DNA from: a virus
Strand: one strand, 5' to 3'
IMG/VR virus record: IMGVR_UViG_3300036773_000096
Location: 56,180 to 120,179 of that record
DNA: 64,000 nt
Shown piece by piece: positions 1,703 to 21,659 of the stretch. The notes beneath the pieces were generated by a model. The model worked only from the letters and a program-made list of their open reading frames with translations. It did not search any database and was not told where the DNA came from. Made by a program: the position numbers and the translations under genes. Within the stretch, counting starts at the first letter, position 1. Every line of letters starts with the position of its first letter.

Positions 1703-3061
1703 TCAGGGAGTGATCGCGGCGGCCAGGTTGACCTTGACCATGGCAGCGGGGCGGTAGACGGCCAAACCCAGCCGCTCTTCGGCCAGGACCACGATGGCGT
1801 TACGAATGAAGAAGTCCGCGTGCTGGTCAGCGGTGCGGATGTTGGACTGCATGCGGTCAAACACCTGCGCGCCCAACCCGAAAGCGCCGATCAGAGCGGT
1901 GCCCTCAGGACACGCCGGAGTGGCGACAACAGGCATCTGCCACAACCGCTTCTCGGCACCGGAAGTGACCGACCCCGCGACCAAATAGCGGCCCTGGGTG
2001 TCCTTGGTCAATTCCATGCGCTCCCAGTCGTATGGGTGCACAACTACGCCGGTCGGGTCATACTGCGCCAACATGACGCGCGTGGCGCCCCGGCGAATAG
2101 CATCGACGTAGGTCTCGTTAGTCGGTGCGTGATAGCCGCCGGAAGGGAACAATTGGATACCCGGCGTGTTGAAAATGCCCAGCAGGTTCTGGCCCGTGCC
2201 GTCACCTAGAAGCAGCTGCTGGTCTTCGACCAACCGCAGGCCATAAAGCAGCCGGGTGTCGATGATTCCGCGCAACTGCGGCTCGTCATCAAGAACGTTG
2301 CGCGACGCGGGCACCCAGTGGGCGAGAGTCCGGATCGGCGTGGTCTTGATGTTGAAGTGGATCTGCGACTTCGGCTTCAGGCCGAAGTTGTCGTTGGGCG
2401 GAGAGACCCCGTCACGCTCGGGAATCATCGCCGCCGCGTTGTCGCCCGCGTCGACGAACCCCAGCTCCTCAATGAACTCGATCATCACCGAGTTGGTGTT
2501 CATCTGCGGGAACAGGTCACGCACCCGCCAGGTGAGCATCGGAGCTGACACCATCGGCGCCCGCTGCACCGTGCCGAAACCAGGGTGGACAACAGTGCCG
2601 ATGCTGCCGGAATGAACATCCTTGTACTGCACGCCGTTGGGGGAGGTAATCTCCTCGCCCTCGATGGCGAACGCCTTGTCCATGAAACCGGAGTCACGGT
2701 GGCCCTTGAAAGCCTCCGACTCGACGAAACGCTGCCCCAGTGACTTATACTCGGGCATCGCCGTCACGCCGATACCGGCCGGGGATCCACCCATCGCCAC
2801 GGGCGTGCCGGCGGGGGCGTCGAGCCACTCGTCCAGGAGGCCCTTGCGCTCCAGGGCGGTGACGATGCCGTGAGTCTCCTCAGCCTTGGCCAGCAGGGCC
2901 TTGAACTCGGTGAGGGCTTCGGGCTTGACGTGCATGTTGCCTTCGCCGTCGAGCCAACCTGACTTGGTGATCTCGTCCATTTGTGCGTTGATGGACTTCA
3001 CTTCGACCTTGCCACGATCAATGAGGTCTTTGTCGTGGCGGTCGAGAGTAGGTGCGGTCAC
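1703..3061 (-). CDS. major capsid protein, HK97 fold
   Basis: 452 aa; N-terminal delta-domain-like helical region; HK97-family motifs IRTLAHWVPASRNVLDD, LLGDGTGQNLLGI, FIRNAIVVLAEERLGLAVYRPAA; AAGGGAG RBS. Confidence 0.95.
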   Translation of the reverse strand: MTAPTLDRHDKDLIDRGKVEVKSINAQMDEITKSGWLDGEGNMHVKPEALTEFKALLAKAEETHGIVTALERKGLLDEWLDAPAGTPVAMGGSPAGIGVTAMPEYKSLGQRFVESEAFKGHRDSGFMDKAFAIEGEEITSPNGVQYKDVHSGSIGTVVHPGFGTVQRAPMVSAPMLTWRVRDLFPQMNTNSVMIEFIEELGFVDAGDNAAAMIPERDGVSPPNDNFGLKPKSQIHFNIKTTPIRTLAHWVPASRNVLDDEPQLRGIIDTRLLYGLRLVEDQQLLLGDGTGQNLLGIFNTPGIQLFPSGGYHAPTNETYVDAIRRGATRVMLAQYDPTGVVVHPYDWERMELTKDTQGRYLVAGSVTSGAEKRLWQMPVVATPACPEGTALIGAFGLGAQVFDRMQSNIRTADQHADFFIRNAIVVLAEERLGLAVYRPAAMVKVNLAAAITP

Positions 3062-3306: not shown

Positions 3307-6300
3307 CTAGCCCACCGTGGCGGTCGCCCGGCCCTGCAATGCACCCGTGCCGCACGACGGGCACGGCGCCGTGCCGACCATCCCGTAGGCGGGGATCATG
3401 ATGTCGTTGCCGCACTCCGGGCACGGGGCAACCTTTACGAGCATCCCGGATGCGTCCATGACGTAGCGGTAGCCCTCGATGACGGTGTCCTCGTAGGACT
3501 CCACATCTTCCGGCCCGTCGGTGTCGGGGCCGTCAGCGTCGGTGTCCGACGGTTTGGGGCCCTGCTGCGCGCGCAGCTTGAACTCGACACCCAGCCGAGC
3601 GGCGCGCAGCATCGTCAATTCATCGACCAGCGACCCGGCCGTCTTCTCCTCGACCACGAGGTGACGCTTCCACACCGCGTCGATTTTCGCCCGCTCCGCG
3701 TCCGCCTCGGCCTGTCGCGCGGCCTCTTTCGCCTTGCGGATCCGCTCGCGCTCCTCATAGGGCTTGGAGTAGTCCGGGGCCTCGTAGCCGCCGCTGTAGC
3801 CGGGCTGAATGCGACGGTTGATCGCCCAGTGCCCCTCGGCCCACGGGAAGTCCAGCGCCGCGAGGTCGTCGAGCAGGGCGTGAACGTTGTCGATGGCCCC
3901 GCGCGCATCATCGGGTCGGGGGATCAGCTCCCCGTCCGACGTCATGAACACTTCCAACTTGTTCCCGCTGCCCAGGGCGGCCAGAGTGCCATCCGGGGAC
4001 GCGGCGGCATCCGGGGACGCGGCGGGGATGGAGAACCGCTTCAGGCGGTCCTTTTCCGGCCCGGCGCTGCCCCGGCCCATGAGGGCGACCTTCGCGCTTG
4101 CCTTCGTCCGTGCCGTGGCTAGACCCTTAGTCGCCTCATCCTGCTGCGGGCCGGCGTCGCCTTTCATGCCGGCGGCCTCCATGGCGGCCTGCAACCGTGC
4201 TGACTCGGCCGTGGCTTCCTTCAGCGCGGCGGCGTGAGCGAACGGCACCCCGATGCGGGCCTTCATCGTCGCGGCTTCGCTGCGCAGCGACGCGGCCCGG
4301 TCAACCTGAAGGTCGCGGCGGAACTCCAGGTTGTTCAGCGAGTTCGCCAGGGTGGTGTTGATGCCCGCGCCGAGCTTCTCGACGTCGCTGGGGCTGATGT
4401 GCACGATGTTGCCGGGCAGGCCCTCCCAGGACAGTGTCATCCCAAAGCGCTTCGTGCCGAGCTTGTCGTAGTGGACCTCCGGCTGACCCAGCAGCACGTG
4501 ACCGCCGATGGTGCCCAGCGGCTTGGGCTTCGACCCGGCGTAGCCGTAGCGGCGTTCCCGGATCTGATCCTGCATCGCCGACTTCAGCAGGGTCGCCCCG
4601 TCGGCGCGGGTCCGGGCGGTGATGCCGGCGACGTTGATGGAGTACTTGTCACCGCTGATGTCGGTGCGCTTGGCGATCGCCGCGTTGTAGGCGGCGGCGT
4701 CGGCGTCGGCCTGCTCCGCGTTGGCCCCGTAGGAGACCACGTCGCGCCGTAGGTTGGTTTGGGTACGGGCGTGCTGGCGCTCCAGGCGGGTGAGCTTGCC
4801 GACCGTGACGTCGACTTTCGCCTTGTCCATGAGTAGCGGGTTGCCGGTGGCCAGGGCCTTGACTTCGGCGTAGGACAGGGCGGTGTCGCCGACGTCTTCG
4901 ATCTCTCGGACGTCGCCCATCTTGCCGCGCATGATCTGGTCGATGAACTTCTTTTTGCGCTCCAGGGTCTGCCACATATAGGCGTCGAAGCTGCCCTCGG
5001 TGACGTAGCGGAAGATCGCGACCTCTTTGTTGGTGTTGCCCTGGCGCATGATTCGGCCGTCGCGCTGCTCCACATCGCTGGGGCGCCACGGGGCGTCGAG
5101 GTGGTGCAGCGCGACCGCGCGGCGCTGCACGTTGGTGCCGACACCCATTTTTTCCGTCGACCCCACCAGCACGGAGACCTGACCGTTGCGGGCGGCGGCG
5201 AACAGCTCCGCTTTCTCCCGGTCGTTTTTGGCCTCGTGCATGAACCGGATCGACTTCGGGTCCATGCCACGGGCGGCCAGCTCGTCACGCAGCTTCTGGT
5301 AGGCGTTCATGCCGGCACCGCCGGGTGTGCCCATGTCGCAGAACACGATCTGCATGCCGCCCGGCGGCGGGTCGTCGCCACCAGCGGGGTCGTTGATGTC
5401 TTTCGGGACGGGCCGGTCTTTGTTCGCATCCCAGATCTTGTAGATGTTGTCGGCCGCCTCTTCGATCTTGCCCGGCTGGTGCTTCTCTCCCACCAGCGCC
5501 ATGCTCAGGGCGGCCTTGCGACCATCACCGGAGATCTTGAGCATGTTGTCGTCTTCGGGCTTGACCTTGCCGTTGCGGACATCCTCGGCGCGCTGGCCCA
5601 ACTCCTGGACGTAAGCCGACAACTCCGGCGACGCCGGCACGATGACGTTCTGCACCCCACCTGTGGCCAGGTCCGGGGTCTTCAGGTTCAGGTCATCGGC
5701 CATCTTCACATCAGCGAACAGGTGGAACAATCGCAGCAACTCAGGAACGTTGCGGAACTTCGCGAAGCGCGTGGTCTGGCGGAACCCCGTACCCTCAGGC
5801 TTGAGTTCCATCTCATCAACGGTCTTGCCGAACGTCGCCGCCCACTGGTCGAATGAGTGAATACCGGCCTCGCGCAACGTCTCAGGGTCGAGGAACCGTT
5901 GCATGATGTATGCCTGGGTGACCGTGTTGCGGATCGGGGTGCCCGTGGCGAACGTTCCCACCCGGCCCGACTTATTGTTCGCCCGCAGGTGCTCCATTTT
6001 CATGTGCAGGTCCGACGCCATGTCCGATCCGGTCGCCCCCGCGCCCTGGATGTTGGAGATGGTGCGCAGGTTGGAGTACATATGCGCCTCGTCGACACAC
6101 AGGTAGTCGATGCCGGTCTCCTCCCAGCTCACCCCGGCATCCTTAACCTTGTCCAGCTTCGCCTTCAGGGCCTCCTCAGCCTTGATCAGCGAGTTCTCCA
6201 TTTTCTTAACGGTCTTCTCTTTAGCGGAGTCCCCCGCCGCCGACGCCTGCGCAGACGCGAGCTGCGCTTTCATCGTCGCCATTTCCCGGTCAATGTAAGC

Positions 6301-9300
6301 CTGCATCGCCGGGCGAGACATCGGGATGGCTTCCATGGCCTTTTGAGTGAGGATAATGGCATCCCACTCACCCGTGGCCGCACGCGCGACGAACTCCCGG
6401 CGCTTATCCCCAGCCAGATCATCGGTACCGGCGGCCAGGACCTTAGCGTTGGGGTAGATCTGGAGGTATTCGCGGGAGAACTGCTCCAGCATGTGATTGG
6501 GAATGACAATGGCGGGCTTGTTCGCCAGGCCCAGTCGCTTCAGCTCAGCGGTGCCCATCGCCATCTCAGCGGTCTTGCCGGCGCCGACGACGTGAGCGAG
6601 CAACGCGCACGGCTCGGACACCATGCGGTTGACCGCCCCCACCTGATGATCGAAGGGGTCGAAGCTGTCGGCCATGCCGGGGAACACCCGTGGCATGTCG
6701 TCATAGGAGCGCAACCGGATCGCGTTGAACTGGTTGTTGTAGGCGGCCAGCAGGCGCCGGGTGCGATCGGAGTCCTCCCACAGCCACTCGGAGAACCGAT
6801 CCGACAACTCCTCGGCCTTGGCCTGGGCGGCAGTGGTCGCCTCCAGGTTCGGGTAGGACTTCGACTTGCCGTCGGCGTCTTTGATGGTGTCGCGGACCTG
6901 GATGGACCGCTGCTCCAGCAGGGACTGAATGATCTCCCCGGCGGAGAGCCGGTCAGTGCCCCACTCCTCAGTGGCCTTAGTGCCCCACTGGCCGCCTTCC
7001 ACGGTCCAAATGCCGCCACCTGACGTAGAGACCTTGATGGAGTGGTACGGGTCATCGCCGTCGGAAAGCAGCTCCACCATGAACGCGCGGACGTCGTCAG
7101 CGGGGATCCACGCGGCCCCCAGGCGCCCGTCGACCTCGTCGACACCCAGGTCCGGGGGGATCACCGCTTCCAGCGCGGTGACGTTCTTAGCGAAGCGGTC
7201 ATCACGCTTGGCGGCCTCACGGGCGGCGGCGAGCTTGCGGCGCACGTTGCCGGACAGGTACGCGGCGGCCGGCTCCAGGGAACCTTCGGAGCGAACCGCC
7301 TCACCGACGGAGTCCAGCGCGGAAGTGTCCGGGGCGTCGTCGAGGTTCAGCCCCGCTGAGATCCCGCCGAAACGCCCGCCGTCGCTGGCGATCCCGGATG
7401 CCTCTTCGATGTGGGCGCGGAACGCGGCGTCGGCGTCGGCCGCTGACAGTGGTGGCTGCTCGAAAACCAGATCACCCAGGCGCTCGCGTGCGCCGGCCTC
7501 ATCGGTGTCCAGCATGGTGGCGATCGCGGGGAGGTTCACCCGGCCGTAGGTGTCCATGGACAGCGCGACGGCGTCCTCGGGACTGTCAGCGTGGGTGGGG
7601 ATCTCCCGTGGGGTGCTGGCCCGTTTGCGGAAGATGCTGGTCTTGGATTCGGTGCCGGTCTCGGCGTCGTAGGCGCCCAGGGCGCGCACGATCGCCGACA
7701 TGGGGTCTTTGCGGAACAGGTTGCGCGCCGGGTCGGGCTTGCGCGCCCCCGATTTGGTCAGCGTGTAGTGGTTGACCGGCCCGTACTTTTTGGTGAACGC
7801 GTCGTAGCGGTCATTGAGCTGCTTGCGTAGTGCTTTGATGTCCGGGGAGTCCGACACCGACGCCGCTTCAGCGGCCAGCAGAGACCGCAGGGTGTCACGG
7901 AGGCCGATCAGCCCACGCACCGCCTCAGCGTGCTTGGCGGGCACGTCCAGTGCCACGGCGGTGCCCTGTTCGGCCTGGGTGAACGTGCCGTCTTCGTGGG
8001 CGGCGATGTGGCCTTCGTGGCGGTCATCATCCGGGGTGGTGAACGCCGTGAGGCCTTCCATGCGGGGTGACGCGGTGATCCCGTCGGCTTTCGCCGCTGC
8101 CACGATCCGGTCCAGCGCGGCCGGCAGGTCGGCCATCGTCTTGTCACCCTTGACGATCAGTGACCCGGTGCCGTACTGGCCCTTCTCTGCGGTGACCTCA
8201 CCCAACATTTGCTCGGGATGGGCAGTGAAGTAGTCGTTGATGGTGATCGTGTGGCCGTTGATGTCCTGATCGTGAGAGTTCACCCAGTCCTGCGACGTCA
8301 AAGGCGCCGCGTCGGGCTCCCGGCGTCGGAAGATCAGGGCGTCTTCGATGACGTCGGTGCCGGAGATCCGGGAGTGCCCCCCGGTGGGTAGGCGCACGGC
8401 GCCGACCAGGTCACCCAGCTCGGCCAGCTTCTTACGCGCGGCGGAGTCTTTCGAGTCCAGGGTGTAGCGCGACGTGAGCAGCGTGACCAGCCCGCCGGGC
8501 TTGGTCTGAGCCAGGGCCTTGGCGATGAAGTGGTTGTGGATCGACATTTTGCGGCCGGGGTTGTGCACCCGGTCGGTCAGGGCGAAGTCACCGAAGGGGA
8601 CGTTGCCGATCGCAGCGTCGAACGAGCCGGCCGGTAGCCGGGTGGCCGCGTAGGACTCGTTTCTTATCGTCGCGTGCGGGTAGAGGGCACGAGAGATCGC
8701 AGCTGTCGTCGAGTCCAACTCGACTCCGACCATGTCGGCGTGCTCGGGTGCGAATCCGATGAACGTTCCGGATCCGGAGCCGGGTTCGAGGACGCGACCA
8801 CCGTCGAACCCCAGATCTCCCATTGCCTTCCACAGCGATTGCACCACGCGGGGGTCGGTGTAGTGGGCGTTGAGGGTATTGCGGCGAGCCTCTGCCCATT
8901 CAGAGTCCGACAGCAGTCCACGCAGCTCCTCTCGTTGTTTCGCGTACTCGGGTTTGTTGTCGTCGAAGACTTCCGGCAGGCCACCCCAGCCGGCCCAACG
9001 CGCGAGCGTGGCCTGCTCTTCGGGGGTGGCGGCGCGGCGTTCGTCTTGCAACTGGCGCAGGGTGCGCAGCGCCGCGAGGTTCGCTTCGAGCTTCGACTTC
9101 TTACCGGCCGGGGCGAAGTCGTCCAGGCCGGTGGGGTGAAAGGACTCCCCGGTGTCGGGGATCGCATCGACCTGCCCGACGTCGGCGCTGGGCTGATCAG
9201 TTTCGGTTACGTCAGGTGCGCTGGGCGCTCCGGCAGTGTCGGCATCGCCGCCTTCGCGCTGTCCCGGTGCTGCTGCCTCAGTTCCTCCTGGGCTGCCTGG

Positions 9301-12300
9301 AAGTCCGCCAGTGCTTGAGTCAGCGCCTGATCCGTCGGATCCTCCGTCGGCACCATCGACGGGTCCGGTGTCGCCGGCAGTGGCAGCGCGTTGTCCGGGG
9401 CGTTCGGGGGCGGCGGGCTCATCAGGAACTCCCGCATCACCTTCTCCGTCGCCGCTTGCTGCGCGGCGTTCAGGCGCCCCAGCTTCTCTGGGTAGCTCTC
9501 CCCCTCCGGATCCGGCCCCGCCAGTTGGTCGGCTGTCTGCTGTATCTGCTGGCGCGCTTGCTCGGCCAGGTCGTCGAAGAACGTCTGCTTGTCCTTGATC
9601 CCCGCGTACGCCTGCGGCTGGTACGTCCGGTACCACGCTTCGGCTTGCCTCGCCAGAACTCCCACGATCATCACCCTCTCTCTGGGGCGATTGTGCACCC
9701 TTGGCGCGGTCGCGTTGTCCCGTGACGATTCCCCGCGCTTTATCCCACAGGCGCTGGCGCTCCGGATTCAGCTCTTGAGCCTGATCGAGGTGAGCGAATG
9801 CGCCCTCGAAATCGCCACCATCGGCGGCGGCGCGAGCTTCCCGCATGTGCTCCTGAGCGCGGGTAACGCGGTTGCCGTCGGCGGCTAGTCGGGCGTCGCG
9901 CTCATCGCGGCGAACCTGCTGCGAGTGCGGCGCGGGTTCAGTGGACGGCGCGGCGGTGCTCGGAACCGGACCCTTGCGGGGTGCGTCCACCGCGCCGCGC
10001 TTGCCATCCTCCGGCGCGCCCTTGCGGCGGCGCAACTCCGCGTCCACTGACCCGATCAGCGACTTGATGCGGTCGCGGTCCAGGCGCTTCGCGAGCCGAC
10101 GGGCTTTCGCGCCCTCGTTGCGCTTCACTCGGCGCTGCTCACGCAACGCCCCGGCTGCGGTAAACAGCATGCCGGCCTTGAGCTTCCCGGACGCGATGGC
10201 GGTATGGATGTCCCCGTCGCCGATGGCGGTGCGGATGTCGTCGAAGGCCGTGGAGTCCCCGTGGCGGCGCAGCATCTTCGCGAAGCGTTCAGCGGCGGCA
10301 GCGACCGCAGCGTCATCACGCGGAGTCGCGTTCAGAGCATCGCCCAGATCCTCAGCGGCACCCGCGACACCGGGACGGACCTTCGGGCCGGTATCTTCCG
10401 GGCCGGCCGGGGCGTCCGTCGCCGACACGGAAGACGCCCCGGCTTCCGCCTTCCGGGTCGCTGCCTCCCGCTTGCGTTCGGTGTCGCGACGGTGCAGTTC
10501 GTCCTGAAGCGCGAGTTCGTCAGTGAGGTCTTTGCGGGTTTCGGTCAGCTGCGGGTCGGTCTGGTCAGCCAGACCAGCCTCACCGGTCTCCAGCAGTGCC
10601 GCCACCCGCTCCTGGCGGTCGGCGACCTCCTGAGTGACCTCCTCCTGCCCGTCGGGGCCGTCCGACAGACCCAGGGCCTCGCCCCGGATGCGGTGGGCGG
10701 AGTCGGCGACCTCCGGCGGCACGGGCACGGTGCCGTCCGGGGTGCCGGCGGGCACTTCCCCGCCAGTGGACTCCGGTGCCTTCGGGTGCTCACCCAGCGG
10801 CAGCGTGGCGAAATCGTGGCGACCGATGCCGGCGGCGTCGCGGCGCTCGTAGTCGTCGGCGCGGTCTCGCATCCGCTTGGCTTCACCGTCAGACGCGCCA
10901 CCGCCCGTCTTGTCGGCGCGCTTGCGCAGTTCGTCGGGAGTGATGCGGCGCCGGATCTCCTCCGTGCGGACACTGTCGGCCATGTTGGCGCCGTGCCCAC
11001 CACGTCGGGTGGCTTCCCGCTTGACCGACGCAAGCTCAGTGTCGTCGAGCTGGCGCAGCGCGGCGTCCCGGTAGGCGGGGTGACTGCGCTTCTGGATTGC
11101 CGAGTAGTCGATCTGGCCCGGCGCGGGGCGCAGTGGGTCCGGCTTGACCTTCGGCCCTCCGGTGTCCTCCGGTGCGGTCGCCGGAGGCTGGTCACCGGGG
11201 GTGTCGGGGTTCTCGTCGGCGTGCAGCGCGCCCCGGACGTGGCGGGTGTACTCGGCCAGGTTCTCGTGCAGCAACTGGCGCTGCGGGGAACCCGCGCGGG
11301 GCTTGCCACCCACCTGGACCTTCGAGTTGTCGGCCTTCAGCGCCGCGACGATGCGCTGAAGGCCGTCCAGGGTGGCGTGCAAGGTAGCCGAGTCAGGTGC
11401 CTCGGCCATCTGGTTCTTAACCCGGATCAGTTCAGCGGCCAGCTTCTCCGGCGTTTTCGCCGACGGGGAGTCCAAACTGCCACGGGCGATGGTCGCCGCG
11501 TGGGCGAGCGCCGGGTCGCTCTGGTCGCGGGCGAGCGTCGCCAGCGCGGCGGACAGATGCGGGGCACTGACATGCCCAGACAGTTGGGCGAGCAAAGCGG
11601 AATCATCGGGGGCGGCCGGAGTGACCAGTGGGTGCGCGTCGACTTCGGGGGCCGGTGTCGATTCGGCGACGGTCGCGGCGGCGCGGCGGCGCGACTCGTC
11701 ACCGAAGCGGGTAGCGGCGAGCTTCGAGTCGGAGTACTCCAGGGAGTTCTTAGGCAGGTTGTTGCGCCGCGCCGTCATGTGCCGCTCGTGCGCGGCGGCG
11801 GACTCCGCCGCGAGCTGCGCGTCGGTCAGCTTCTCGGGGGCGTTGTGGTTCCCGGTGGGCTTGTATTCGTGCTCGGGCGCGGCCTGGGGCTTGTTCGGGT
11901 CGACAGCCGGGGTACCGGCGGACACCAGTGGCAGGGCAGAGCGGTTCTTAACCCCGCGTGTTTGGGTGCCGCCACCCGTGCCGTCGTCGTAGGTGATCAG
12001 TGTTTGCCCGGTGCGGCCCGGCTTGGCCTGGGTGACTTTGCCGCCATCGTGGCGCGACAGCATGACGTGGTCACCCGCGCGGACCTCACTGGCTTTCACC
12101 GTGGGGTAGCTGCCGGGCTTGATGCCGTAGGTGTTGACCAGCACCGGGGTGCCGTACTTGCGGTCATCAGCAGGCGCGGCCGGCGCTTCCGGAGTGGCTG
12201 GCGGCGTCTTTGGCAGGTCGTAACCGCCGGGGATGGTGTTCGCACCGGCCGTCACGGTGGTGGTGCCGTCGGCGTGGGCGGTGCCTACCGGATTCGGCTT

Positions 12301-13998
12301 AACGGGCGCGGCGGGCGCGGGCGGGTTAGCGTGCGGTGCTGCCCCCGGTGGAACCGCCGGAGCCGGTCCTGCGACGCCCGGCTTTTGCTGCCCGCCATCG
12401 GGGGCAGCGCCGGCCTGTGGAGTCACTGCCTGCGCGGCGACCGCGTCGAGACGCTTGGCGGCGACCTCCGATGGCAGCACCAGCAGGCTGGCGGCCATCT
12501 CGTGCGGGTCCTGATCGGGCGGCAGACCCATCCGCGTGAGGGCTTCCGCGAGGGCGTCACGATCCTGGGTGGCGATCGCCGATTCGGCGTCATCGCGGGC
12601 GCCGGCCGCGTCGACTTCACCGACGGGCGCGGGGGCGGAGAACGGGGTGATCTGAGACAGGACGTCGCGGACGGCCTGCTGGTCGGCGCTGCGCTGCTTG
12701 GCGTTGGCCCACCGCTTCTTACGCGCTTCGATGTCATCCCAGGGGATGCCGATCTGGGTGAGGTGATCCAGCGCGGCGTCGATCTGGTCGGGGGGCGCGT
12801 CGGGGGGGATCTGGGCGGCGTTGGACAGGCCGCTGCCCGCATTGGCGGTGTCGACGATTGTCCAACCGGCGCCTCCGTGGACGGCGGCGAGCTGCCCATC
12901 GGTGGACGCGTGGACATCAGCGCCGGGGGCGGCGAACTGGGCGAGCATCGCCAGGGAGTTCTCGGCCAGGCTGGAGTCACCGAACGCCGGGGTCTTCTGG
13001 ACCTGCTCATTGAGTTCCTGGTACCGCTGATGCAGCGCGGCTAGTGCTTTGGAGACACCGGGGCCGGGCGGCGCGAGCGGGGCTAGGGCAGGGTCACCGG
13101 GCGCGCCGGCAGCACCGGGTGTGCCCGGCTTGGCGGGCATTCCGGGGCCACCGTGGAGCTGCTGGGGCTTGACCGGCCCACTGGCGCCTTCCGGTGCGGT
13201 GGTGGCCGCGATCTGTGCGGTGGTGGGTGTCTGGCCGCTGCGGGGACGCATGCCGGCTTTGATGGGGGTGCCTAGGGGCATGCCCCAGAACTCGGCGTCG
13301 CGCACGACACGGATGCCCTTGTACTCCACGCCATCAAGCACAGTGGTCCCCTCGTCGGTGACACCGGAACGAGACTCATCGTACCAGATGTCCCCGACAC
13401 CTTCGGAGAGAGATTTCACCCCCGTGAGGTGCGCGAGCTTATGTGCCCCGTGCAATACCTGGGACCACTCATACAAATCATAGTCATGCAGGTAACGCTT
13501 ACCGCTGCGCATCCGATAACCACCGGGGCGCACCTTATACCCAATGGAGAAACATTCCTCCGGCCCGTAGAACTTAGCGTCCGCGTAAGCGTCGCGGCCG
13601 ATCTCTTTATCCAGGTTGTACTTCGCCTTGATCAGCAGACCGCCCGCGTTGGCCGGCCACGGCTCACCCTGCGGAGTCGTCTTAGGCAACTGCGGGTCAC
13701 CCGGCATGAGTTCCTTCGACCACACCAGCCGCGACACCTTCGCTGACCAGTTGTGCGACATCACGCCCTTGGGCTTCAGCCGCTTGATCGCGGTGGCCAG
13801 CGAGCCCGGCACGATGACGTCGCCGACCTCATCGACCACCCCAGAGACCGCGACCAGCGCCGTGATCGTGCCGTCGGCGTCGTCGTGACCGATCACCCCG
13901 GTCAGCGGGGAGGTCATCTCCGCTGTGGGCAGCGCCTTCCACTCCAGCGCATCCATGTCCTCCGGAGTGTCGACGTCATCCGGGAACGTTGTGGTCAC
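3307..13998 (-). CDS. giant 3,563-aa fusion: HK97-type prohead protease + Pro/Ala-rich and helical cargo region + DarB-like N6-adenine methyltransferase + SF2 (SNF2-like) helicase + C-terminal Zn finger
   Basis: Protease-like N-terminus (VDEVGDVIVPG, SHNW, FSIGY, LYEWSQV). MTase motif I VLEPGSGSG (~8760-8795) and motif IV GNVPF (~8591-8608). Helicase Walker A AHVVGAGKT (~6571-6597), DEAH (~6081-6095), ATGTP, and motif VI QRDGRIMRQGN (~5040-5068). C-terminal CPECG...CPSCG. The GTG start overlaps the upstream TGA. Confidence 0.9.
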   Translation of the reverse strand: MTTTFPDDVDTPEDMDALEWKALPTAEMTSPLTGVIGHDDADGTITALVAVSGVVDEVGDVIVPGSLATAIKRLKPKGVMSHNWSAKVSRLVWSKELMPGDPQLPKTTPQGEPWPANAGGLLIKAKYNLDKEIGRDAYADAKFYGPEECFSIGYKVRPGGYRMRSGKRYLHDYDLYEWSQVLHGAHKLAHLTGVKSLSEGVGDIWYDESRSGVTDEGTTVLDGVEYKGIRVVRDAEFWGMPLGTPIKAGMRPRSGQTPTTAQIAATTAPEGASGPVKPQQLHGGPGMPAKPGTPGAAGAPGDPALAPLAPPGPGVSKALAALHQRYQELNEQVQKTPAFGDSSLAENSLAMLAQFAAPGADVHASTDGQLAAVHGGAGWTIVDTANAGSGLSNAAQIPPDAPPDQIDAALDHLTQIGIPWDDIEARKKRWANAKQRSADQQAVRDVLSQITPFSAPAPVGEVDAAGARDDAESAIATQDRDALAEALTRMGLPPDQDPHEMAASLLVLPSEVAAKRLDAVAAQAVTPQAGAAPDGGQQKPGVAGPAPAVPPGAAPHANPPAPAAPVKPNPVGTAHADGTTTVTAGANTIPGGYDLPKTPPATPEAPAAPADDRKYGTPVLVNTYGIKPGSYPTVKASEVRAGDHVMLSRHDGGKVTQAKPGRTGQTLITYDDGTGGGTQTRGVKNRSALPLVSAGTPAVDPNKPQAAPEHEYKPTGNHNAPEKLTDAQLAAESAAAHERHMTARRNNLPKNSLEYSDSKLAATRFGDESRRRAAATVAESTPAPEVDAHPLVTPAAPDDSALLAQLSGHVSAPHLSAALATLARDQSDPALAHAATIARGSLDSPSAKTPEKLAAELIRVKNQMAEAPDSATLHATLDGLQRIVAALKADNSKVQVGGKPRAGSPQRQLLHENLAEYTRHVRGALHADENPDTPGDQPPATAPEDTGGPKVKPDPLRPAPGQIDYSAIQKRSHPAYRDAALRQLDDTELASVKREATRRGGHGANMADSVRTEEIRRRITPDELRKRADKTGGGASDGEAKRMRDRADDYERRDAAGIGRHDFATLPLGEHPKAPESTGGEVPAGTPDGTVPVPPEVADSAHRIRGEALGLSDGPDGQEEVTQEVADRQERVAALLETGEAGLADQTDPQLTETRKDLTDELALQDELHRRDTERKREAATRKAEAGASSVSATDAPAGPEDTGPKVRPGVAGAAEDLGDALNATPRDDAAVAAAAERFAKMLRRHGDSTAFDDIRTAIGDGDIHTAIASGKLKAGMLFTAAGALREQRRVKRNEGAKARRLAKRLDRDRIKSLIGSVDAELRRRKGAPEDGKRGAVDAPRKGPVPSTAAPSTEPAPHSQQVRRDERDARLAADGNRVTRAQEHMREARAAADGGDFEGAFAHLDQAQELNPERQRLWDKARGIVTGQRDRAKGAQSPQREGDDRGSSGEASRSVVPDVPAAGVRGDQGQADVLRRPGRASAPADTADSRPTGGAGSGGGELPREAGAPERRAASGDGEGDAGVPDEPAAPERPGQRAATAGDTGPVDGADGGSDGSGADSSTGGLPGSPGGTEAAAPGQREGGDADTAGAPSAPDVTETDQPSADVGQVDAIPDTGESFHPTGLDDFAPAGKKSKLEANLAALRTLRQLQDERRAATPEEQATLARWAGWGGLPEVFDDNKPEYAKQREELRGLLSDSEWAEARRNTLNAHYTDPRVVQSLWKAMGDLGFDGGRVLEPGSGSGTFIGFAPEHADMVGVELDSTTAAISRALYPHATIRNESYAATRLPAGSFDAAIGNVPFGDFALTDRVHNPGRKMSIHNHFIAKALAQTKPGGLVTLLTSRYTLDSKDSAARKKLAELGDLVGAVRLPTGGHSRISGTDVIEDALIFRRREPDAAPLTSQDWVNSHDQDINGHTITINDYFTAHPEQMLGEVTAEKGQYGTGSLIVKGDKTMADLPAALDRIVAAAKADGITASPRMEGLTAFTTPDDDRHEGHIAAHEDGTFTQAEQGTAVALDVPAKHAEAVRGLIGLRDTLRSLLAAEAASVSDSPDIKALRKQLNDRYDAFTKKYGPVNHYTLTKSGARKPDPARNLFRKDPMSAIVRALGAYDAETGTESKTSIFRKRASTPREIPTHADSPEDAVALSMDTYGRVNLPAIATMLDTDEAGARERLGDLVFEQPPLSAADADAAFRAHIEEASGIASDGGRFGGISAGLNLDDAPDTSALDSVGEAVRSEGSLEPAAAYLSGNVRRKLAAAREAAKRDDRFAKNVTALEAVIPPDLGVDEVDGRLGAAWIPADDVRAFMVELLSDGDDPYHSIKVSTSGGGIWTVEGGQWGTKATEEWGTDRLSAGEIIQSLLEQRSIQVRDTIKDADGKSKSYPNLEATTAAQAKAEELSDRFSEWLWEDSDRTRRLLAAYNNQFNAIRLRSYDDMPRVFPGMADSFDPFDHQVGAVNRMVSEPCALLAHVVGAGKTAEMAMGTAELKRLGLANKPAIVIPNHMLEQFSREYLQIYPNAKVLAAGTDDLAGDKRREFVARAATGEWDAIILTQKAMEAIPMSRPAMQAYIDREMATMKAQLASAQASAAGDSAKEKTVKKMENSLIKAEEALKAKLDKVKDAGVSWEETGIDYLCVDEAHMYSNLRTISNIQGAGATGSDMASDLHMKMEHLRANNKSGRVGTFATGTPIRNTVTQAYIMQRFLDPETLREAGIHSFDQWAATFGKTVDEMELKPEGTGFRQTTRFAKFRNVPELLRLFHLFADVKMADDLNLKTPDLATGGVQNVIVPASPELSAYVQELGQRAEDVRNGKVKPEDDNMLKISGDGRKAALSMALVGEKHQPGKIEEAADNIYKIWDANKDRPVPKDINDPAGGDDPPPGGMQIVFCDMGTPGGAGMNAYQKLRDELAARGMDPKSIRFMHEAKNDREKAELFAAARNGQVSVLVGSTEKMGVGTNVQRRAVALHHLDAPWRPSDVEQRDGRIMRQGNTNKEVAIFRYVTEGSFDAYMWQTLERKKKFIDQIMRGKMGDVREIEDVGDTALSYAEVKALATGNPLLMDKAKVDVTVGKLTRLERQHARTQTNLRRDVVSYGANAEQADADAAAYNAAIAKRTDISGDKYSINVAGITARTRADGATLLKSAMQDQIRERRYGYAGSKPKPLGTIGGHVLLGQPEVHYDKLGTKRFGMTLSWEGLPGNIVHISPSDVEKLGAGINTTLANSLNNLEFRRDLQVDRAASLRSEAATMKARIGVPFAHAAALKEATAESARLQAAMEAAGMKGDAGPQQDEATKGLATARTKASAKVALMGRGSAGPEKDRLKRFSIPAASPDAAASPDGTLAALGSGNKLEVFMTSDGELIPRPDDARGAIDNVHALLDDLAALDFPWAEGHWAINRRIQPGYSGGYEAPDYSKPYEERERIRKAKEAARQAEADAERAKIDAVWKRHLVVEEKTAGSLVDELTMLRAARLGVEFKLRAQQGPKPSDTDADGPDTDGPEDVESYEDTVIEGYRYVMDASGMLVKVAPCPECGNDIMIPAYGMVGTAPCPSCGTGALQGRATATVG
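9207..9665 (-). CDS. overprinted gene in the +1 frame of the giant ORF; resembles TnpV-like small proteins that precede DarB-like genes in actinobacterial ICEs/plasmids
   Basis: GAGAGG RBS 9 nt before GTG 9665; G/C-ending codons in this frame and A/T-ending codons in the giant frame; sequence LARQAEAWYRTYQPQAYAGIKDKQTFFDDLAEQARQQI...YPEKLGRLNAAQQAATEKVMREFL. Confidence 0.7.
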   Translation of the reverse strand: MGVLARQAEAWYRTYQPQAYAGIKDKQTFFDDLAEQARQQIQQTADQLAGPDPEGESYPEKLGRLNAAQQAATEKVMREFLMSPPPPNAPDNALPLPATPDPSMVPTEDPTDQALTQALADFQAAQEELRQQHRDSAKAAMPTLPERPAHLT

Positions 13999-15863
13999 GT
14001 CACGGCCTCCGCCGATGCCGCCTCGAACAGCGCACCCCAGCCACCGTCGTCAGCACCGGGGTCCGGGTCGCCCGACGGCACCCCGTCGACCGGGTCCGCC
14101 TCGGGCTCGGCCTCCTCGACCACCACAGGGTCGGGGTCGGCGACGAGCTTGGAACCCAGTGCGGCCAGCGCGGCGGTGCGCTCCACCTCACTGGGTGGCT
14201 CGGCGTCCTCATCGGTGTCGCCCTGGGCTTCGGCCAGCTCCGCGAGATAACCCTCCACCCACGGCTCATCGAAAATCTGACCCCAGTCGTCGATGCCGGC
14301 GAACATCTCCGCTAAGTCCGGCTCGGCCACAGCGAGACTTTTGACCTCCGTGGCATCCCAGTCCCAGTCAACCAGCGACTTCACACCGTAAGTGATCGGC
14401 TTGCCGGGCTTGGCTTTCGCGGTGTGCGCGTTCTTGCCCGGCCACTCACCCGTGGCGATCTTGTGAATGTTCGCGGTCAAACCGTTCAGAATGCGCGGAT
14501 TGTGCACGTATTTCGCCAGATGCCGGCGCAGGCGCTTGAAATCACCGGGAATGCCCGGCTTCCACTTCGCCCGGCCTTTCGCGGTGCGAGCCCAGAAGTT
14601 ACGCAATCGCGACGCCCCCGGCGACGGTGAGGTGACCTTGACCTCGACCCCGTCCTCCAGGGACTTCCCGTGAAATGAGTGCGGCTCCAGGTAGCCGATC
14701 TTGGCGTGCACGTGGGGCTCGGCGCCCAACCGGATCGCCTCGGCCGCGAGGTGTTCTTTGTGCTTGGCCTTGTGGCTGTCGCGGACCTTCGAGTGTGCCC
14801 GGATCGCCGCGTGCAGCGCGGCCAGGTGCGGCAGCGGTGCGGGCGCGGCATTGCCCGGTGCCCACGACTTCGTCTCAACCTCATCCTCAGGTGCAGACTT
14901 CGTGCCGCTGCCGTCGGTGCTGGCACCTTCCAGCGTGTCGATGCGGGACAGGGTGTGCGCGCTGGCCCCCAGGCGCTTCGCGTGGCCCCGTAATACCCGC
15001 ACCCGCGCCGGGCGATCCTCAGTGGGACAGTTCCCGTGCTCCTCGATCGCCCGATGCAGATCATCAATGGACTCCAGGCGCGGCCCGTCATTGACCACCC
15101 GGCCCATGTTCATCTCCCGCACAGCGGCCTTGACCTCCGCACGGCCCATCATGTCCCCAGCCCACGACAGTCCCGCCGGCCCGCACGCCCCCGCGACCCA
15201 GATCAGCCCCGACATATCCAGGGCCTTGCCCTCAATCACCTCCTGCGCGTACGGACCGTCCAGGCCCTCCGCCGCGTCGCGCACCGCCTTCGGCGGTGTG
15301 AACGTGATCGACTTGACCTGTGGTCTGGGCATGCCCGCCTCCTGATCTCCCAACGGCACATCGAGCACGTCACCAGCGAGCGCGAGGCGCAGCGTGGTGA
15401 AGCGCACCGGGCCGGTGTAGCTCAACGCGTCGATGCTGATTCCGTAGCCGGCCGTCACATGCCACAGGACAGGGGTGTGCTGGTCGGGTAGATCCGGGTA
15501 ATCCTCACCCGTAGCCATGACCCAGGTGGCCCATTTGCGCAGTGGGTCAAGGTCGGGCGTGTCGCCCACCAGGTAGACCGCACACGGCTCTTTGTCGCTG
15601 CCGGCGTCCCCGTCGGGGTTCAACGTGGCGTGACCAATGATCCGAGCGGTGACCGCGTCCAGGCCCGGCCCGCTCGCCGTGATCAGCTCTTTCAAGTGCT
15701 GGGCTTGCCCCGCCGGCCACTGAGCGACGTCATCGCCCAGGTAGAGCAGGGTCAGGTGGATCTGATCGGCAGGATCACCGCCGTCGACAACCAGCTCACC
15801 GGGATTGTCGGGGATCAGTGCGAGCATGCCCCCGCTGTAGGTCTTCGGCTCCTCGTCAGTCAC
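13995..15863 (-). CDS. head-associated multidomain protein with an N-terminal 2H phosphoesterase (LigT/Acb1-like) domain
   Basis: Two HxT motifs (IHLTLLYLG, WHVTAGY); later domain RLRNFW...GDFKRLRRHLAKY...GLTANIHKIATGEWPG recalled from actinophage head proteins; GTG 15863 overlaps the upstream stop and its TGA overlaps the giant ORF start. Confidence 0.8.
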   Translation of the reverse strand: MTDEEPKTYSGGMLALIPDNPGELVVDGGDPADQIHLTLLYLGDDVAQWPAGQAQHLKELITASGPGLDAVTARIIGHATLNPDGDAGSDKEPCAVYLVGDTPDLDPLRKWATWVMATGEDYPDLPDQHTPVLWHVTAGYGISIDALSYTGPVRFTTLRLALAGDVLDVPLGDQEAGMPRPQVKSITFTPPKAVRDAAEGLDGPYAQEVIEGKALDMSGLIWVAGACGPAGLSWAGDMMGRAEVKAAVREMNMGRVVNDGPRLESIDDLHRAIEEHGNCPTEDRPARVRVLRGHAKRLGASAHTLSRIDTLEGASTDGSGTKSAPEDEVETKSWAPGNAAPAPLPHLAALHAAIRAHSKVRDSHKAKHKEHLAAEAIRLGAEPHVHAKIGYLEPHSFHGKSLEDGVEVKVTSPSPGASRLRNFWARTAKGRAKWKPGIPGDFKRLRRHLAKYVHNPRILNGLTANIHKIATGEWPGKNAHTAKAKPGKPITYGVKSLVDWDWDATEVKSLAVAEPDLAEMFAGIDDWGQIFDEPWVEGYLAELAEAQGDTDEDAEPPSEVERTAALAALGSKLVADPDPVVVEEAEPEADPVDGVPSGDPDPGADDGGWGALFEAASAEAVT

Positions 15864-16101
15864 AGGCGTCACCGGGGAAGTGCCAGGTTCCCCCGGCCAT
15901 CGCCTCGTCATAGGTGCACTCGTTGTGGTGCGTTCCCGTAGGCGTGATGACGTAGAAGTTCCACATGCTGGCGCCCAGCTGCTCAACGGCGATCGCTGGG
16001 CGGCAGCGCGGCCGGTAGACCTGCGTCCCGTCGATCAGGACGGGGCTACCGTGAGCGCGATAGTGCACATGGTCGCCGATAGTGAGCTGCACGTAGCGCA
16101 T
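15856..16101 (-). CDS. conserved small phage hypothetical protein
   Basis: IGDHVHYRAHGSP...CRPAIAVE...TPTG...GTWHFP pattern recalled from actinophage small proteins; start trimmed to ATG 16101. Confidence 0.6.
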   Translation of the reverse strand: MRYVQLTIGDHVHYRAHGSPVLIDGTQVYRPRCRPAIAVEQLGASMWNFYVITPTGTHHNECTYDEAMAGGTWHFPGDACD

Positions 16102-18545: not shown

Positions 18546-19886
18546 CTAAGCCGCAGCGGCCGGCGTGGCCACGATCTGACCCGCCGACACGGCCGCCACC
18601 GCCAGCACCACGCCCGCCGCGAGCACCAACGCCCCACTCGAAACACCCACCAGTGTCCCGGTCGGGACGGTCACCGCCAGCACCGCCGCGCCCGCGACCA
18701 CGGGTGGGGCCAGCGCGAGCGCCAGCGCGCCCGGCCAGGACAACTGCTGCCCCGGTGCCACCGCCACCTCGCCACCGAGCACCCGGTAACCCACCACGTC
18801 AGCCGGAACCGACACCTCGGGTATCGCCATCGGCTCACCCAGCTCCGGCGCACTGACCACTAGCGGGCCATCCGTTCGGGGAATCCCCGCCCGCAGCAAC
18901 CGGGTGGCCGCCTTCGGTGTGCCGCGCTGCGCCAAACCCACCGCGCGGGCCTTATCGGGGGCCGGTCTCGAGAAAAGCAGCGAACAGCGGCACCCGAACA
19001 CTTCCCGGCCACCGGCCGGCAGCACCATCGGGTCAGCGGGGAACCGCAGGCCGAACTCGCCCACCTGAAACTTCTCCCCCACGGGCCGGATCTGCCCGTC
19101 GGCCTCGACGTGGGTATGGCGGACCCGGTCATCGCGCCGCGACAGCCACTGAGTGTGGGTAACGCCCAGGGCTTTCGCCGCCCCCAGCGCGGCGTCGCCG
19201 GCCAGCGCCGTGGCCAGAGTGCGCCCGTTGATCAGCAGCCATCGGCCGCCGCGCTTGGTGGCCTCCATGACCCGGTCGATCGCCTCGGACAGGTTCCCCG
19301 CCGTGGAGTCGGCGGCCAGGATCTCCCGGCGGATGTCAACAGCGTGGCGTTCGTTGACTTCCAGCATCCGCCCCACTACCGAGTCGACCGCGCTGGAGAT
19401 CGCCGACCAGTCCAGTGCCGCGAGCCCCGTGTTCGGGCGCCCCAGGGACTTCGCGACAGCTGCGGAAGCGTCCGCCACGATCCGCAACCCCACCGGGCGT
19501 ACGGCGTCGGCGACCTCAGTGACCACCCGCTCGGGTAACACGTAGGACGCGTCGAGGGCTTTGACTTCGGTTCTATGTCCGTAAGAGGCCACTTCCCCTC
19601 GCCCTGATACCGATTTCACCCCATCGGACCAGAAGCGGGTGCCCTTGCGAGCCTTCGGGCCGCGCATCCGGGCCTCGACAACCGCCTCCAGCCGGTCGTT
19701 GTAGCCGCCGATCGCGGCATCCATCAACGCCACCGCCCGGTCGATGCGCGCCGCACCGTGATCGGCCAGCGCGGTGCGGATCGGGCCGGGCTCCGGATCG
19801 GGGAGAGCTTCGGAGATCATCGCGGCCTGGGCGGCCAACGCCGGAAGGGCGTCAGCGGCGAGCGGGTCGCCCCCCGCTCTGCTCAT
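18546..19886 (-). CDS. phage head morphogenesis protein (MuF/SPP1 gp7-like)
   Basis: WLSRRDDRVRHTH...ADGQ...F.VG...FPADP...GCRC motif; lies directly after the portal gene. Confidence 0.85.
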   Translation of the reverse strand: MSRAGGDPLAADALPALAAQAAMISEALPDPEPGPIRTALADHGAARIDRAVALMDAAIGGYNDRLEAVVEARMRGPKARKGTRFWSDGVKSVSGRGEVASYGHRTEVKALDASYVLPERVVTEVADAVRPVGLRIVADASAAVAKSLGRPNTGLAALDWSAISSAVDSVVGRMLEVNERHAVDIRREILAADSTAGNLSEAIDRVMEATKRGGRWLLINGRTLATALAGDAALGAAKALGVTHTQWLSRRDDRVRHTHVEADGQIRPVGEKFQVGEFGLRFPADPMVLPAGGREVFGCRCSLLFSRPAPDKARAVGLAQRGTPKAATRLLRAGIPRTDGPLVVSAPELGEPMAIPEVSVPADVVGYRVLGGEVAVAPGQQLSWPGALALALAPPVVAGAAVLAVTVPTGTLVGVSSGALVLAAGVVLAVAAVSAGQIVATPAAAA

Positions 19887-21525
19887 CCTCCAGGCTCTTG
19901 ACCTGAACTGGCGCGGCGTCGACCGCGCTACCCGGTGCGGTGCGATCAGCTTGGCCGATGGCCCGCTGGTTCGGTGGCCCCGCCGTCACCGCATCAGCCG
20001 GCGCGCCACTGTCCTGTCCAGGGCCTTCCAGGTCCGCGCTCGGGTCGACACCGAAGCCCGCCGGCAGCGTATTGGGCACCCCGGCACCGCCCGCGCCCCC
20101 AGCCGGTGCCATGCCGAGCTGCCCATTGCCGATGGGGGCGTTGCCGGCGGCGTGAGCGTCCCCGTCGTGGGCGGGCTGACCGTCGTCGATGGCCAGGCGC
20201 GCGGACGGGATCCACAGCACGCGGGTACCGGGGACGTTTATCGGATCGCGGTCGCACACCTCGCGGTACTCGTCGATGCTGATCGCGCCCCGGTCGAGGT
20301 CGGCCGCCGCCCGGTCCTCATCGGCGCGCTGATGCCGGCCCAGCACCCACACATCGGAAACGTCATGGGAGAGGTAGGTCTCATCGTCATAGCCGCCCGG
20401 TGACAGGACATCCAATTGCGCGTCCAATAGCCGGAACAATGGCAACATGCAATGCTCCCACGCTTTAGCGTAATCAGCATCAGCATTATCGAATGTTTGC
20501 CCCGACGCATCGGAGACAACGGACTCGGGCAGTCCGAACGCCACGCAGATCTCGCGTTTGGTCCGGTCCATGGTGTCGGCCCACTGAGTGTCCCGGGGTG
20601 TCCCGGACGTGTCCGTCCACGCCATGTCGTCGGCTTCGATGACGGTAGTGCGGGCATTGGAGACGTTCGGCCCCCCGTTGAACCGGGCGGCCAGCACGTC
20701 CTCATAGTTCGGGTCCAGGGGGCCCTTCACGGCCAGGATGCCGCCCGGCCGGCCGTCTTCGAGCATGAACCTGCGGTTGTACAGGCGCGCATATCGGTCG
20801 AGGTCTGCGGACAGGCCGGCGGCTTCCATGGGCGACATGCCGCGCTCGAACATCGTGGGGTGCGGGGAGCGCAGCCACACGATGCCGCTGGGCTGGTCCT
20901 CTGGAGAAGCGTTGGGATCGAACGGTGGCCGCCAATCCCACCGGGGGGAACCATTGGCTACCGCCGTGGTCACCCGGAACGACTCGATGGGAGTGACGAC
21001 ACCGATCTCATTCGGATCCTGCGGGTTCTTCTTCCGCCGCCCCGGCACGGGCAGAACCGCATCAGGATCCAGCAGGTAAACCGAGTGGATACCGCCGCCG
21101 CGTGTGCGGACCGCCTCGACGAACACCCCGCGTGAGGACAGCATGAACTGGGCGGTGAGACGGTGACGCCAAACCTGGGCGATCTCCCACTCATTGGCGC
21201 GGCGGTTCAGCCGGCGCAGGATCCGCTTCTGCTCCCGGTCCTGCTGGCCGGGGTCGATGATCTCCCCGTCGTTGGGGTTGTCGCGGCGCAGCACGATCTG
21301 TCTGGCGCGCTCATTGGCGGCGATGAACTCCACACACCGGAAGACATACGGGTTCCAGGAGTAGCCCTCACGCACCGCGCGGTCGGTGTCCCAGTCAACG
21401 GAGTAGGGCTGGCCGGGAACGATGTAGCCGCGTGGGCCGGTGACCACTCGGGAGTCCAGGCCGCCACCTTGACTGCCTGCTCCAGCGAAACGCGCGCGCA
21501 GGGCCGGCAGGAAGCGACGGGCCAC
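19852..21525 (-). CDS. portal protein (HK97 family)
   Basis: NPYVFRCVEFIA, GMSPMEAA, PGGILAV, ICVAFGLPESVV, ISIDEYRE; GGAGG RBS fits GTG 21525. Confidence 0.92.
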   Translation of the reverse strand: MARRFLPALRARFAGAGSQGGGLDSRVVTGPRGYIVPGQPYSVDWDTDRAVREGYSWNPYVFRCVEFIAANERARQIVLRRDNPNDGEIIDPGQQDREQKRILRRLNRRANEWEIAQVWRHRLTAQFMLSSRGVFVEAVRTRGGGIHSVYLLDPDAVLPVPGRRKKNPQDPNEIGVVTPIESFRVTTAVANGSPRWDWRPPFDPNASPEDQPSGIVWLRSPHPTMFERGMSPMEAAGLSADLDRYARLYNRRFMLEDGRPGGILAVKGPLDPNYEDVLAARFNGGPNVSNARTTVIEADDMAWTDTSGTPRDTQWADTMDRTKREICVAFGLPESVVSDASGQTFDNADADYAKAWEHCMLPLFRLLDAQLDVLSPGGYDDETYLSHDVSDVWVLGRHQRADEDRAAADLDRGAISIDEYREVCDRDPINVPGTRVLWIPSARLAIDDGQPAHDGDAHAAGNAPIGNGQLGMAPAGGAGGAGVPNTLPAGFGVDPSADLEGPGQDSGAPADAVTAGPPNQRAIGQADRTAPGSAVDAAPVQVKSLEDEQSGGRPARR

Positions 21526-21659
21526 AACCACCTCCGAAGATCGGACGGGTCAATGTAGCCACGCCGGGAGGCCCGGAACGCATCGACGCGCCGGGGATGG
21601 GAGGCCCGGCGCGTCGATAGGAGGGGTGATGCTGGCGGGTGGTGGTTCGCCAACGCCGA

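Follow-up and report, generated by a model that had tools for sequence, protein, structure and literature searches.

The last 64 kb (64,000 nucleotides, nt; in the following called the window; G + C 67%) of an IMG/VR virus record (IMGVR_UViG_3300036773_000096; 120,179 bp, complete and ending in terminal repeats) contain a giant open reading frame (ORF) for a protein of 3563 amino acids (aa), and inside it, on the same strand and in the +1 frame, a small TnpV-like ORF. Comparison of the window with related phage contigs and with plasmid and genome loci from actinobacteria indicates that the two most probably form a nested (overprinted) gene pair which was inherited by the phage as one unit and in which the overlap is ancestral. 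As revealed by this comparison, the two frames have both been preserved, the small one under purifying selection and the large one by being kept free of stop codons. The inherited unit would consist of the TnpV-like small gene, the overlapping linker and a DarB-like N6-methylase/SNF2 helicase, a combination that is widespread on actinobacterial plasmids. The features of the window on which the argument is based are the following (SD, Shine-Dalgarno).

3307..13998, minus strand: giant ORF of 3563 aa, one unbroken frame in the ORF list and its translation.
9207..9671, minus strand: putative nested TnpV-like gene, +1 to the giant frame, 154 aa from ATG 9671, stop codon TAA at 9207-9209.
9674-9680, minus strand: SD-like GAGAGGG of the nested gene, within giant-frame codons, 8 nt before GTG 9665 and 2 nt before ATG 9671.
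9151..9700, minus strand: giant-frame linker overlapping the nested gene, of low complexity and rich in Gly, Ala, Arg, Pro and Asp in translation.
9672..9707, minus strand: presumed seam zone with the last phage-specific codons before the cassette, from the alignment of the window with the related contig L008 (indel at 9706/9707).
3307..9150, minus strand: DarB-like methylase-helicase part of the giant ORF (phrog_10089, 'DarB-like antirestriction', E = 0).
13402..13893, minus strand: head-maturation-protease-like domain, residues 36-199 of the giant ORF (phrog_80, 'head maturation protease', E = 4.7e-13).

With respect to the window itself, the small frame is open on the minus strand from 9767 to the TAA at 9207-9209, and the ORF of 152 aa with its own GAGAGG ribosome binding site that had been pointed out in an initial annotation made from the sequence alone is indeed present, with a GTG at 9665 as its start. 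In addition to this codon, a GTG at 9698 (163 aa) and the ATG at 9671 (154 aa, which is the length of the homologue P0003) are candidate starts. The described contrast in codon endings between the two frames is likewise borne out, as the small frame has a G + C content of 0.74/0.47/0.86 at codon positions 1/2/3, which is a normal coding pattern, compared to about 0.86/0.75/0.40-0.52 in the giant frame over 9200-9720. For the whole giant ORF the corresponding values are 0.70/0.51/0.82 (150-nt windows); the giant frame therefore loses its coding signature over this interval, and the frame plot of third-position G + C that had been proposed as a check favours the small frame. The translation of the giant frame over the overlap is a low-complexity linker, as had been claimed, with a composition of 25% G, 15% A, 13% R and 10% P when pooled over relatives. 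The N-terminal methylase motif GESFHP..DDFAPAG starts at 9150, i.e., 57 nt or 19 codons past the stop of the small ORF, so that the originally estimated distance of about 100 nt to the methyltransferase domain was roughly right, and no start codon is found between this stop and the motif in the window. The window thus displays, as in the plasmid cassette, a separate SD and start, a stop 0-20 codons before the methylase motif and no start in between. Its enzyme frame has no stop across the small ORF and is open for 4384 nt upstream. The accompanying caveat that such a frame stays open easily holds for the window alone: when the codons of the window's small ORF were shuffled, 1.1 stops were expected and the giant frame was open in 28% of the trials, and therefore its openness is not significant in the window by itself but only family-wide.

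A tblastn search with the small product matched 23 actinobacterial plasmids, mostly at genes named 'TnpV protein' by the Prokaryotic Genome Annotation Pipeline (PGAP), and a scan of one genome per species yielded 80 more loci. The loci belong to Micromonospora, Arthrobacter, Paenarthrobacter, Kocuria, Sinomonas, Solirubrobacterales, Nakamurella, Pseudonocardia, Leifsonia, Cellulomonas, Prauserella and one metagenome-assembled genome (MAG) of Dehalococcoidia. Homologues of the +1 product as surmised in the initial annotation hence exist on actinobacterial plasmids, and so does the suggested synteny of TnpV-like with DarB-like genes: relatives of the small gene are carried by 87 sequences, which apart from the window are three related phage contigs, five plasmid records and 78 genome contigs (individual loci are given by L numbers), and in 83 of the 87 a methylase-helicase homologue lies directly downstream. 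The downstream enzymes have 48-57% identity to the methylase-helicase of the window over the first 350 aa.

In 82 of these 83 loci, the window included, the small frame equals the enzyme frame +1, and the enzyme frame has no stop codon across the small ORF in any of 81 loci, while codon shuffles expect 0.3-3.9 per locus. For 23 representatives with less than 70% identity, 32.2 stops are expected and none is observed (joint P ~1e-17), and for nine representatives with less than 50% identity the numbers are 12.7 and again none (P ~1e-7). The other frame, in turn, holds more stops than the shuffles (117 vs 82). On an Antarctic Arthrobacter plasmid with only 56% G + C (L095), 4.25 stops are expected and none is present (P = 0.004). 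Most loci are devoid of an ATG, GTG or TTG in the enzyme frame between the stop of the small gene and the conserved F/H-P..DLAP.G motif, many have no enzyme-frame start codon inside the small gene either, and in Sinomonas the methylase motif begins at the very stop codon of the small gene. Furthermore, the plasmid relatives carry a GGAGGA 6-9 nt before the ATG of the small gene, and in some plasmids there is a serine-recombinase gene just upstream.

For the phage lineage, the window was compared with three further IMG/VR contigs containing the same giant gene, namely L008 (also L089 and L092; 121.5 kb), L091 (also L093; 79 kb) and L090 (20.6 kb, ending inside the small ORF). The giant ORF is intact in L008 (3644 aa) and L091 (3689 codons) and open to the contig end in L090, and in all these relatives an open giant frame is accompanied by the small ORF at +1, which has a start with an SD-like site and, as far as the contig reaches, ends in TAA. 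The SD of the nested gene in L008 is identical to that in the window, whereas it reads GGATGGAGG in L091 and GGAAGG, at the same place, in L090. According to Nei-Gojobori estimates for the four phage contigs, the ratio of non-synonymous to synonymous substitution rates (dN/dS) over the overlap amounts to 0.39-0.60 for the small frame, compared to 1.07-2.0 for the giant and 0.93-1.45 for the third frame, and it is therefore the small frame which is under amino-acid selection there, selection on the giant frame acting only against stops. The giant-frame linker has no detectable amino-acid constraint, its dN/dS resembling that of the untranslated third frame. In the flanks of the overlap the giant-frame dN/dS is 0.07-0.25 (0.10-0.25 in the upstream part to 9709, 0.07-0.15 in the protease-like domain and 0.14-0.17 in the methylase part). 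Conservation is thus not confined to the giant frame, which is the outcome by which the dN/dS comparison of both frames suggested in the initial annotation supports its view of the small ORF as a gene. An embedded pair in the sense that both frames are intact in relatives and the nested frame is under purifying selection is found in the phages as well as in the plasmids.

It could be argued that the nested gene arrived with the cassette and is a relic that is unused by the phage and has not yet decayed, so that only the giant protein matters. In favour of this, the small-frame dN/dS of 0.39-0.60 is well above the 0.07-0.25 of the flanks, the N-terminus of the small protein differs from the MN(K/R)YG start in plasmids, and the protein has no assigned function. 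However, none of the phage contigs that cover the ORF, SD, start and stop has lost any of them despite a synonymous divergence of up to ~0.65, the small-frame dN/dS is below the 0.93-2.0 of the two other frames, and the substitutions between the window and L008 fall 6/10/20 on small-frame codon positions 1/2/3. A mere relic is accordingly considered to be quite unlikely.

Conversely, only the small gene might be coding, and the giant frame might be open as a by-product of composition, since its first position is the G/C-rich third position of the small frame; the DarB-like enzyme would then start alone, at a non-canonical codon after the small gene. The 28% of codon shuffles that leave the giant frame open in the window, the lack of amino-acid constraint on the giant frame in the overlap and the annotation of two separate genes by PGAP in several plasmids are all compatible with such an artefact. 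The family-wide absence of stops is, however, far beyond chance, and the PGAP starts cut into a conserved motif: in L005, L006, L007, L094 and L095, where two genes are called, the enzyme start is placed inside the conserved N-terminal motif, as exemplified by the TTG inside DLAPSG in L006. Older or other annotations, as in L002 and L001, show a single long 'helicase' and omit the small gene. Moreover, the upstream part of the giant ORF in the phages, with its dN/dS of 0.10-0.25 as far as 9709, has no stop, and ribosomes coming from 13998 must therefore reach 3307. An origin of the open frame in composition alone is very improbable by these observations.

How the enzyme frame is entered in the plasmids can be seen from the region upstream of the small gene. 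In most loci the enzyme frame starts 76-125 nt upstream of the small-gene ATG (193 nt in Leifsonia), at a start codon with an SD-like site, after which comes a conserved leader consisting of a basic stretch, G-Q-L-S-F-E/D-x-L-W and P-E-E. The codons for P-E-E spell GGAGGA, which is the SD of the small gene. Outside the overlap, the variation in the leader is concentrated on enzyme-frame third positions (entropy 13.9 vs 5.2 and 3.4; 14.9 vs 4.8 and 3.6), which argues that the leader is translated, and as no stop follows before the methylase the enzyme would therefore be read through the small gene. Because the plasmid loci keep the upstream enzyme start, the open frame and the +1 offset and have no later start, the overlap itself is most probably ancestral. 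This is at variance with the initial proposal that the phage created the fusion by reading off-frame through a once-separate small gene, since the enzyme frame of the plasmids already starts upstream and is free of stops in 81/81 loci. The leader motif of loci L002-L007, L015, L033, L041, L061-L063, L083 and L084, Q-L-S-F-(E/D)-x-L-W or Q-L-x-(F/L)-D-L-W-G, resembles beta-clamp-binding motifs (QL[SD]LF, QLxLWG), and it could equally be a transfer signal.

The leader is one of several front modules, the Micromonospora and Streptomyces forms being likewise without it. In the Micromonospora loci L001, L010-L013, L019, L026 and L031 the front module is a DnaG-type primase (DnaG_N, PF08275, E = 8e-8) of ~424 residues in the enzyme frame, resulting in ORFs of ~2500 aa with the order primase, nested gene, methylase and helicase. 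On a plasmid of Streptomyces chartreusis (L096, NZ_CP108821.1), a coding sequence of 32.7 kb and ~10,900 codons (149205-181922, annotated as 'UvrD-helicase domain-containing protein') has an 89-aa family member nested at +1 ~919 codons from its start, with the methylase motif directly after it. In the phage lineage the front module comprises 1433 residues of head-protease/scaffold-like sequence, and this head-module sequence was met in the window, L008, L090 and L091 instead of a leader of the QLSF..LW type.

A programmed -1 frameshift would offer yet another explanation for the arrangement, with ribosomes starting on the small gene and slipping near its end to produce a TnpV-methylase-helicase fusion. 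The +1 offset is exactly what a -1 slip needs and is present in 82 of 83 loci, and the lack of a start codon before the methylase motif would also be accounted for. However, a canonical X XXY YYZ heptamer occurs in the small frame in none of the 83 loci, and RNA folding of the window shows nothing unusual where the small gene stops (z = -0.11). Neither would a slip need the large frame to be open over the whole small ORF and past its start, and the conserved translated leader as well as the in-frame primase and protease modules upstream would be left unexplained. In addition, a search for longer proteins with the small domain in frame found none, which is weak evidence, and of the 1304 cluster representatives yielded by a profile of the small-protein family the best 150 are all of 90-303 aa. 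In metagenomes, homologues with 89%, 78% and 51% identity occur as small genes called on their own. Taken together with the points above, frameshifting of this kind is very improbable. Two compensating sequencing frameshifts were considered as well and rejected, as four independent assemblies and ~80 genomes share the layout.

Under the interpretation as an inherited nested pair, the question is where the phage-specific part ends. Similarity to the plasmid cassette starts at the small gene and its SD, and upstream of ~9700 nothing in the phage sequence corresponds to the leader. L008 (9707-9958) and L091 (around 9540-9790) have an additional in-frame segment of 252 nt (84 codons) just before the nested gene; this segment is missing from the window, where the breakpoint is at 9706/9707, and from L090. 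Since the similarity to the cassette starts there and the indel maps to 9706/9707, the seam is placed at about 9672-9707, upstream of the small gene and not across 9207-9665 as initially assumed. The distribution of the 252-nt segment contradicts the similarity of the small genes, according to which L090 is closest to L091, and therefore suggests recurrent deletion or recombination at the phage seam. By this alignment the seam is best described as the in-frame exchange of a front module and not as the read-through of a once-separate gene. Of the phage fusion as first conceived, the joining of a head-module protein (with the phrog_80 N-terminus) to the cassette therefore remains, while the cassette would not have been a two-gene one but already a nested pair before its capture.

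Several observations weigh against this interpretation. If only the phage lineage is considered, the giant frame could well be open by chance (P(open) 0.15-0.42 per contig). The small protein is fast-evolving (57% identity between the window and L091) with a dN/dS above that of the flanks (0.07-0.25), and the constraint on it, as estimated from these sequences, is only moderate. The layout is broken in two Solirubrobacterales MAGs, L014 and L017, which are the only such cases among the 83 loci: in L014 the small frame continues into the enzyme, and in L017 the two share one frame and are separated by a stop. As the sister loci L015, L016, L018, L022 and L027 are canonical, these exceptions are likely to be indel errors. 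When the structural model of the small protein was compared with the PDB by Foldseek, nothing matched at E <= 0.001. Finally, the phage is uncultured, and both products are predicted from its sequence.

As for the giant ORF, its parts follow each other in the order head-protease-like N-terminus, ~1200 aa of helical and Pro-Ala-rich sequence, disordered linker, DarB-like N6-methylase with SF2/SNF2 helicase, and Cys-rich C-terminal end. The phrog_10089 profile is matched over its full length, including methylase and SF2 helicase parts; the methylase-helicase part also matches phrog_11801 ('DNA methyltransferase', E = 2.9e-191), there is a Helicase_C match (E = 1.9e-5), and LEPGSG and NVPF motifs are readable in the translation. 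Within the head operon, the giant ORF comes after the portal/MuF genes and before the major capsid gene, with the following neighbours.

19852-21531: portal gene, head operon.
18546-19886: MuF-like gene, head operon.
13995-15986, minus strand: gene of 663 aa with a protease-like domain, preceding the giant ORF in the head operon.
1703-3061: major capsid gene, head operon, after the giant ORF.

The gene at 13995-15986 shares 4 nt (GTGA) with the start of the giant ORF. Its N-terminal domain matches both phrog_18402 ('head maturation protease', E = 1e-30) and phrog_2659 ('RNA ligase', E = 3e-26), and it may code for a second cargo-type protein of the head operon. A scan of 8900-10100 for promoters and terminators found none.

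With regard to expression, the large gene on the plasmids would start upstream and be read through the small gene one base behind, giving rise to a flexible Gly/Ala/Arg/Pro-rich tether, and the small gene would be translated separately from its own SD and ATG embedded in the codons of the large gene. In the phage, ribosomes starting at 13998 would synthesise one protein of 3563 residues, and ribosomes loading at the internal SD (9674-9680) would synthesise a helical protein of 152-154 residues from the same late transcript; it is presumed that the two products are actually made. By analogy with the packaged DarB of phage P1 and with polyvalent proteins, the protease/scaffold part would bring the DarB-like enzyme into the procapsid, and the giant protein would probably be delivered together with the DNA, as P1 DarB is. 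That the giant protein is packaged is suggested by its position in the head operon and its protease-like N-terminus, which are the only indications pointing to it. The N-terminal modules in general might act as delivery tags, and the near-constant linkage, as the only indication, would fit a small protein that works with the enzyme.

Going further, and as a tentative and rather doubtful proposition, the small protein might be an obligatory partner or regulator of DarB-like enzymes, the overlap coupling the synthesis of both on one mRNA with an exchangeable delivery tag upstream. Elongating ribosomes in the large frame would then control the access to the internal SD, and the tag would serve capsid targeting in phages and conjugative transfer or contact with the replisome in plasmids.

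The small protein itself is all-helical in an AlphaFold2 model (predicted local distance difference test score, pLDDT, 80.5), with predicted helices at residues 3-15, 17-22, 26-49, 58-81 and 110-140 and a disordered Pro-rich spacer. It has no match in PHROGs and NCBIfam, and tblastn searches of deposited phages with the window's small protein and the family member P0012 gave no match. Some family members have no enzyme directly after them, namely a solo copy on a plasmid of Arthrobacter sp. U41 (L003, 5315-5668 of the record), L040 with a gap of 1.3 kb before the enzyme, and L042 and L085 with no enzyme within reach, so that the small gene is not bound to the nested arrangement. A high-GC cassette of the Arthrobacter type is also found on two contigs of 'Vibrio cholerae strain 35D', L064 (WNZI01000021) and L082 (WNZI01000040). 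L064 and L065 (Arthrobacter sp. NPDC092385) have identical small proteins, and the 'Vibrio cholerae strain 35D' assembly is probably contaminated with actinobacterial DNA.

In bacteria and phages, long genes that are nested out of frame and conserved are seldom met with, and their existence is difficult to prove. The comparative support in the present case is unusually strong, with dozens of divergent loci, selection apparent in both frames and an exchangeable front module. Since annotation pipelines either merge the small gene into a giant coding sequence or cut the enzyme start into a conserved motif, the true N-terminus of a widespread anti-restriction enzyme as well as a family of 1300 clusters are misdescribed. 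The phage case would furthermore exemplify the recruitment of a plasmid anti-restriction cassette into a head operon by an in-frame swap of the front module, hidden gene included, and the gene pair offers a concrete and testable system for asking what TnpV-like proteins do.

Compared with known systems, the closest counterpart is the plasmid cassette as carried by, e.g., Paenarthrobacter aurescens TC1 pTC2 (AAur_pTC20002), Kocuria rosea NZ_CP127860, Sinomonas atrocyanea pSA01 and Micromonospora NZ_CP108881, where the enzyme is annotated as 'helicase-related protein'. Both share the small-protein family (31-50% identity, core AGPD..GE.Y.EK.GRLNAA), the enzyme (48-57% identity in the first 350 aa), the +1 offset, the open large frame, the internal SD and a small-gene stop a few codons before the F/H-P..DLAP.G motif. 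However, the phage has 1433 head-protease/scaffold-like residues in place of the basic QLSF..LW leader, and its small protein is 152-154 aa long, in contrast to ~115-135 aa in the plasmids, with a Pro-rich spacer and an extra C-terminal helix and not an acidic tail. The phage copy is also set in a head operon and not on a plasmid.

The polyvalent proteins of phages and conjugative elements have been described as a class delivered with DNA (Iyer et al. 2017, PMC5512222). As in P1 DarB and these proteins, a DarB-like methylase-helicase is joined here to other modules (a phage peptidase, or a Toprim primase in plasmids) among late/head genes. Neither 'TnpV' nor 'overlapping' occurs in that publication (PMC5512222), and the nested gene is therefore not part of the published description of polyvalent proteins.

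The likeness to TnpV of Tn4451/Tn4453-type elements (PF14198) consists in the PGAP name 'TnpV protein' for the plasmid homologues and in weak matches of 26 of 36 family members (best E = 4e-6). In contrast, the window's own protein does not match PF14198 at E <= 1 (the gathering score being 27 bits), nor did a PF14198 search of the whole phage record and 14 control genomes give a match, and the link of the window protein to TnpV, drawn through its relatives, is transitive only. In the literature searched, no function has been established for TnpV, and no paper was found on a TnpV gene nested in a methylase-helicase gene.

Nested out-of-frame genes as such are already known, and the TnpV-like/methylase-helicase pair is a case with good comparative support. 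Embedded same-strand gene pairs include Rz1 inside Rz of phage lambda (in the +1 frame) and comS inside srfAB of Bacillus subtilis. The likeness lies in a complete out-of-frame small gene with its own start signals within a larger gene on the same strand, both being kept in relatives. In contrast to Rz/Rz1 and comS/srfAB, however, the host frame encodes here, in the overlap, a flexible linker free of constraint within a multi-domain protein of mobile elements, native codon usage is that of the nested frame, and the pair is kept across several actinobacterial orders while its front module is exchanged.

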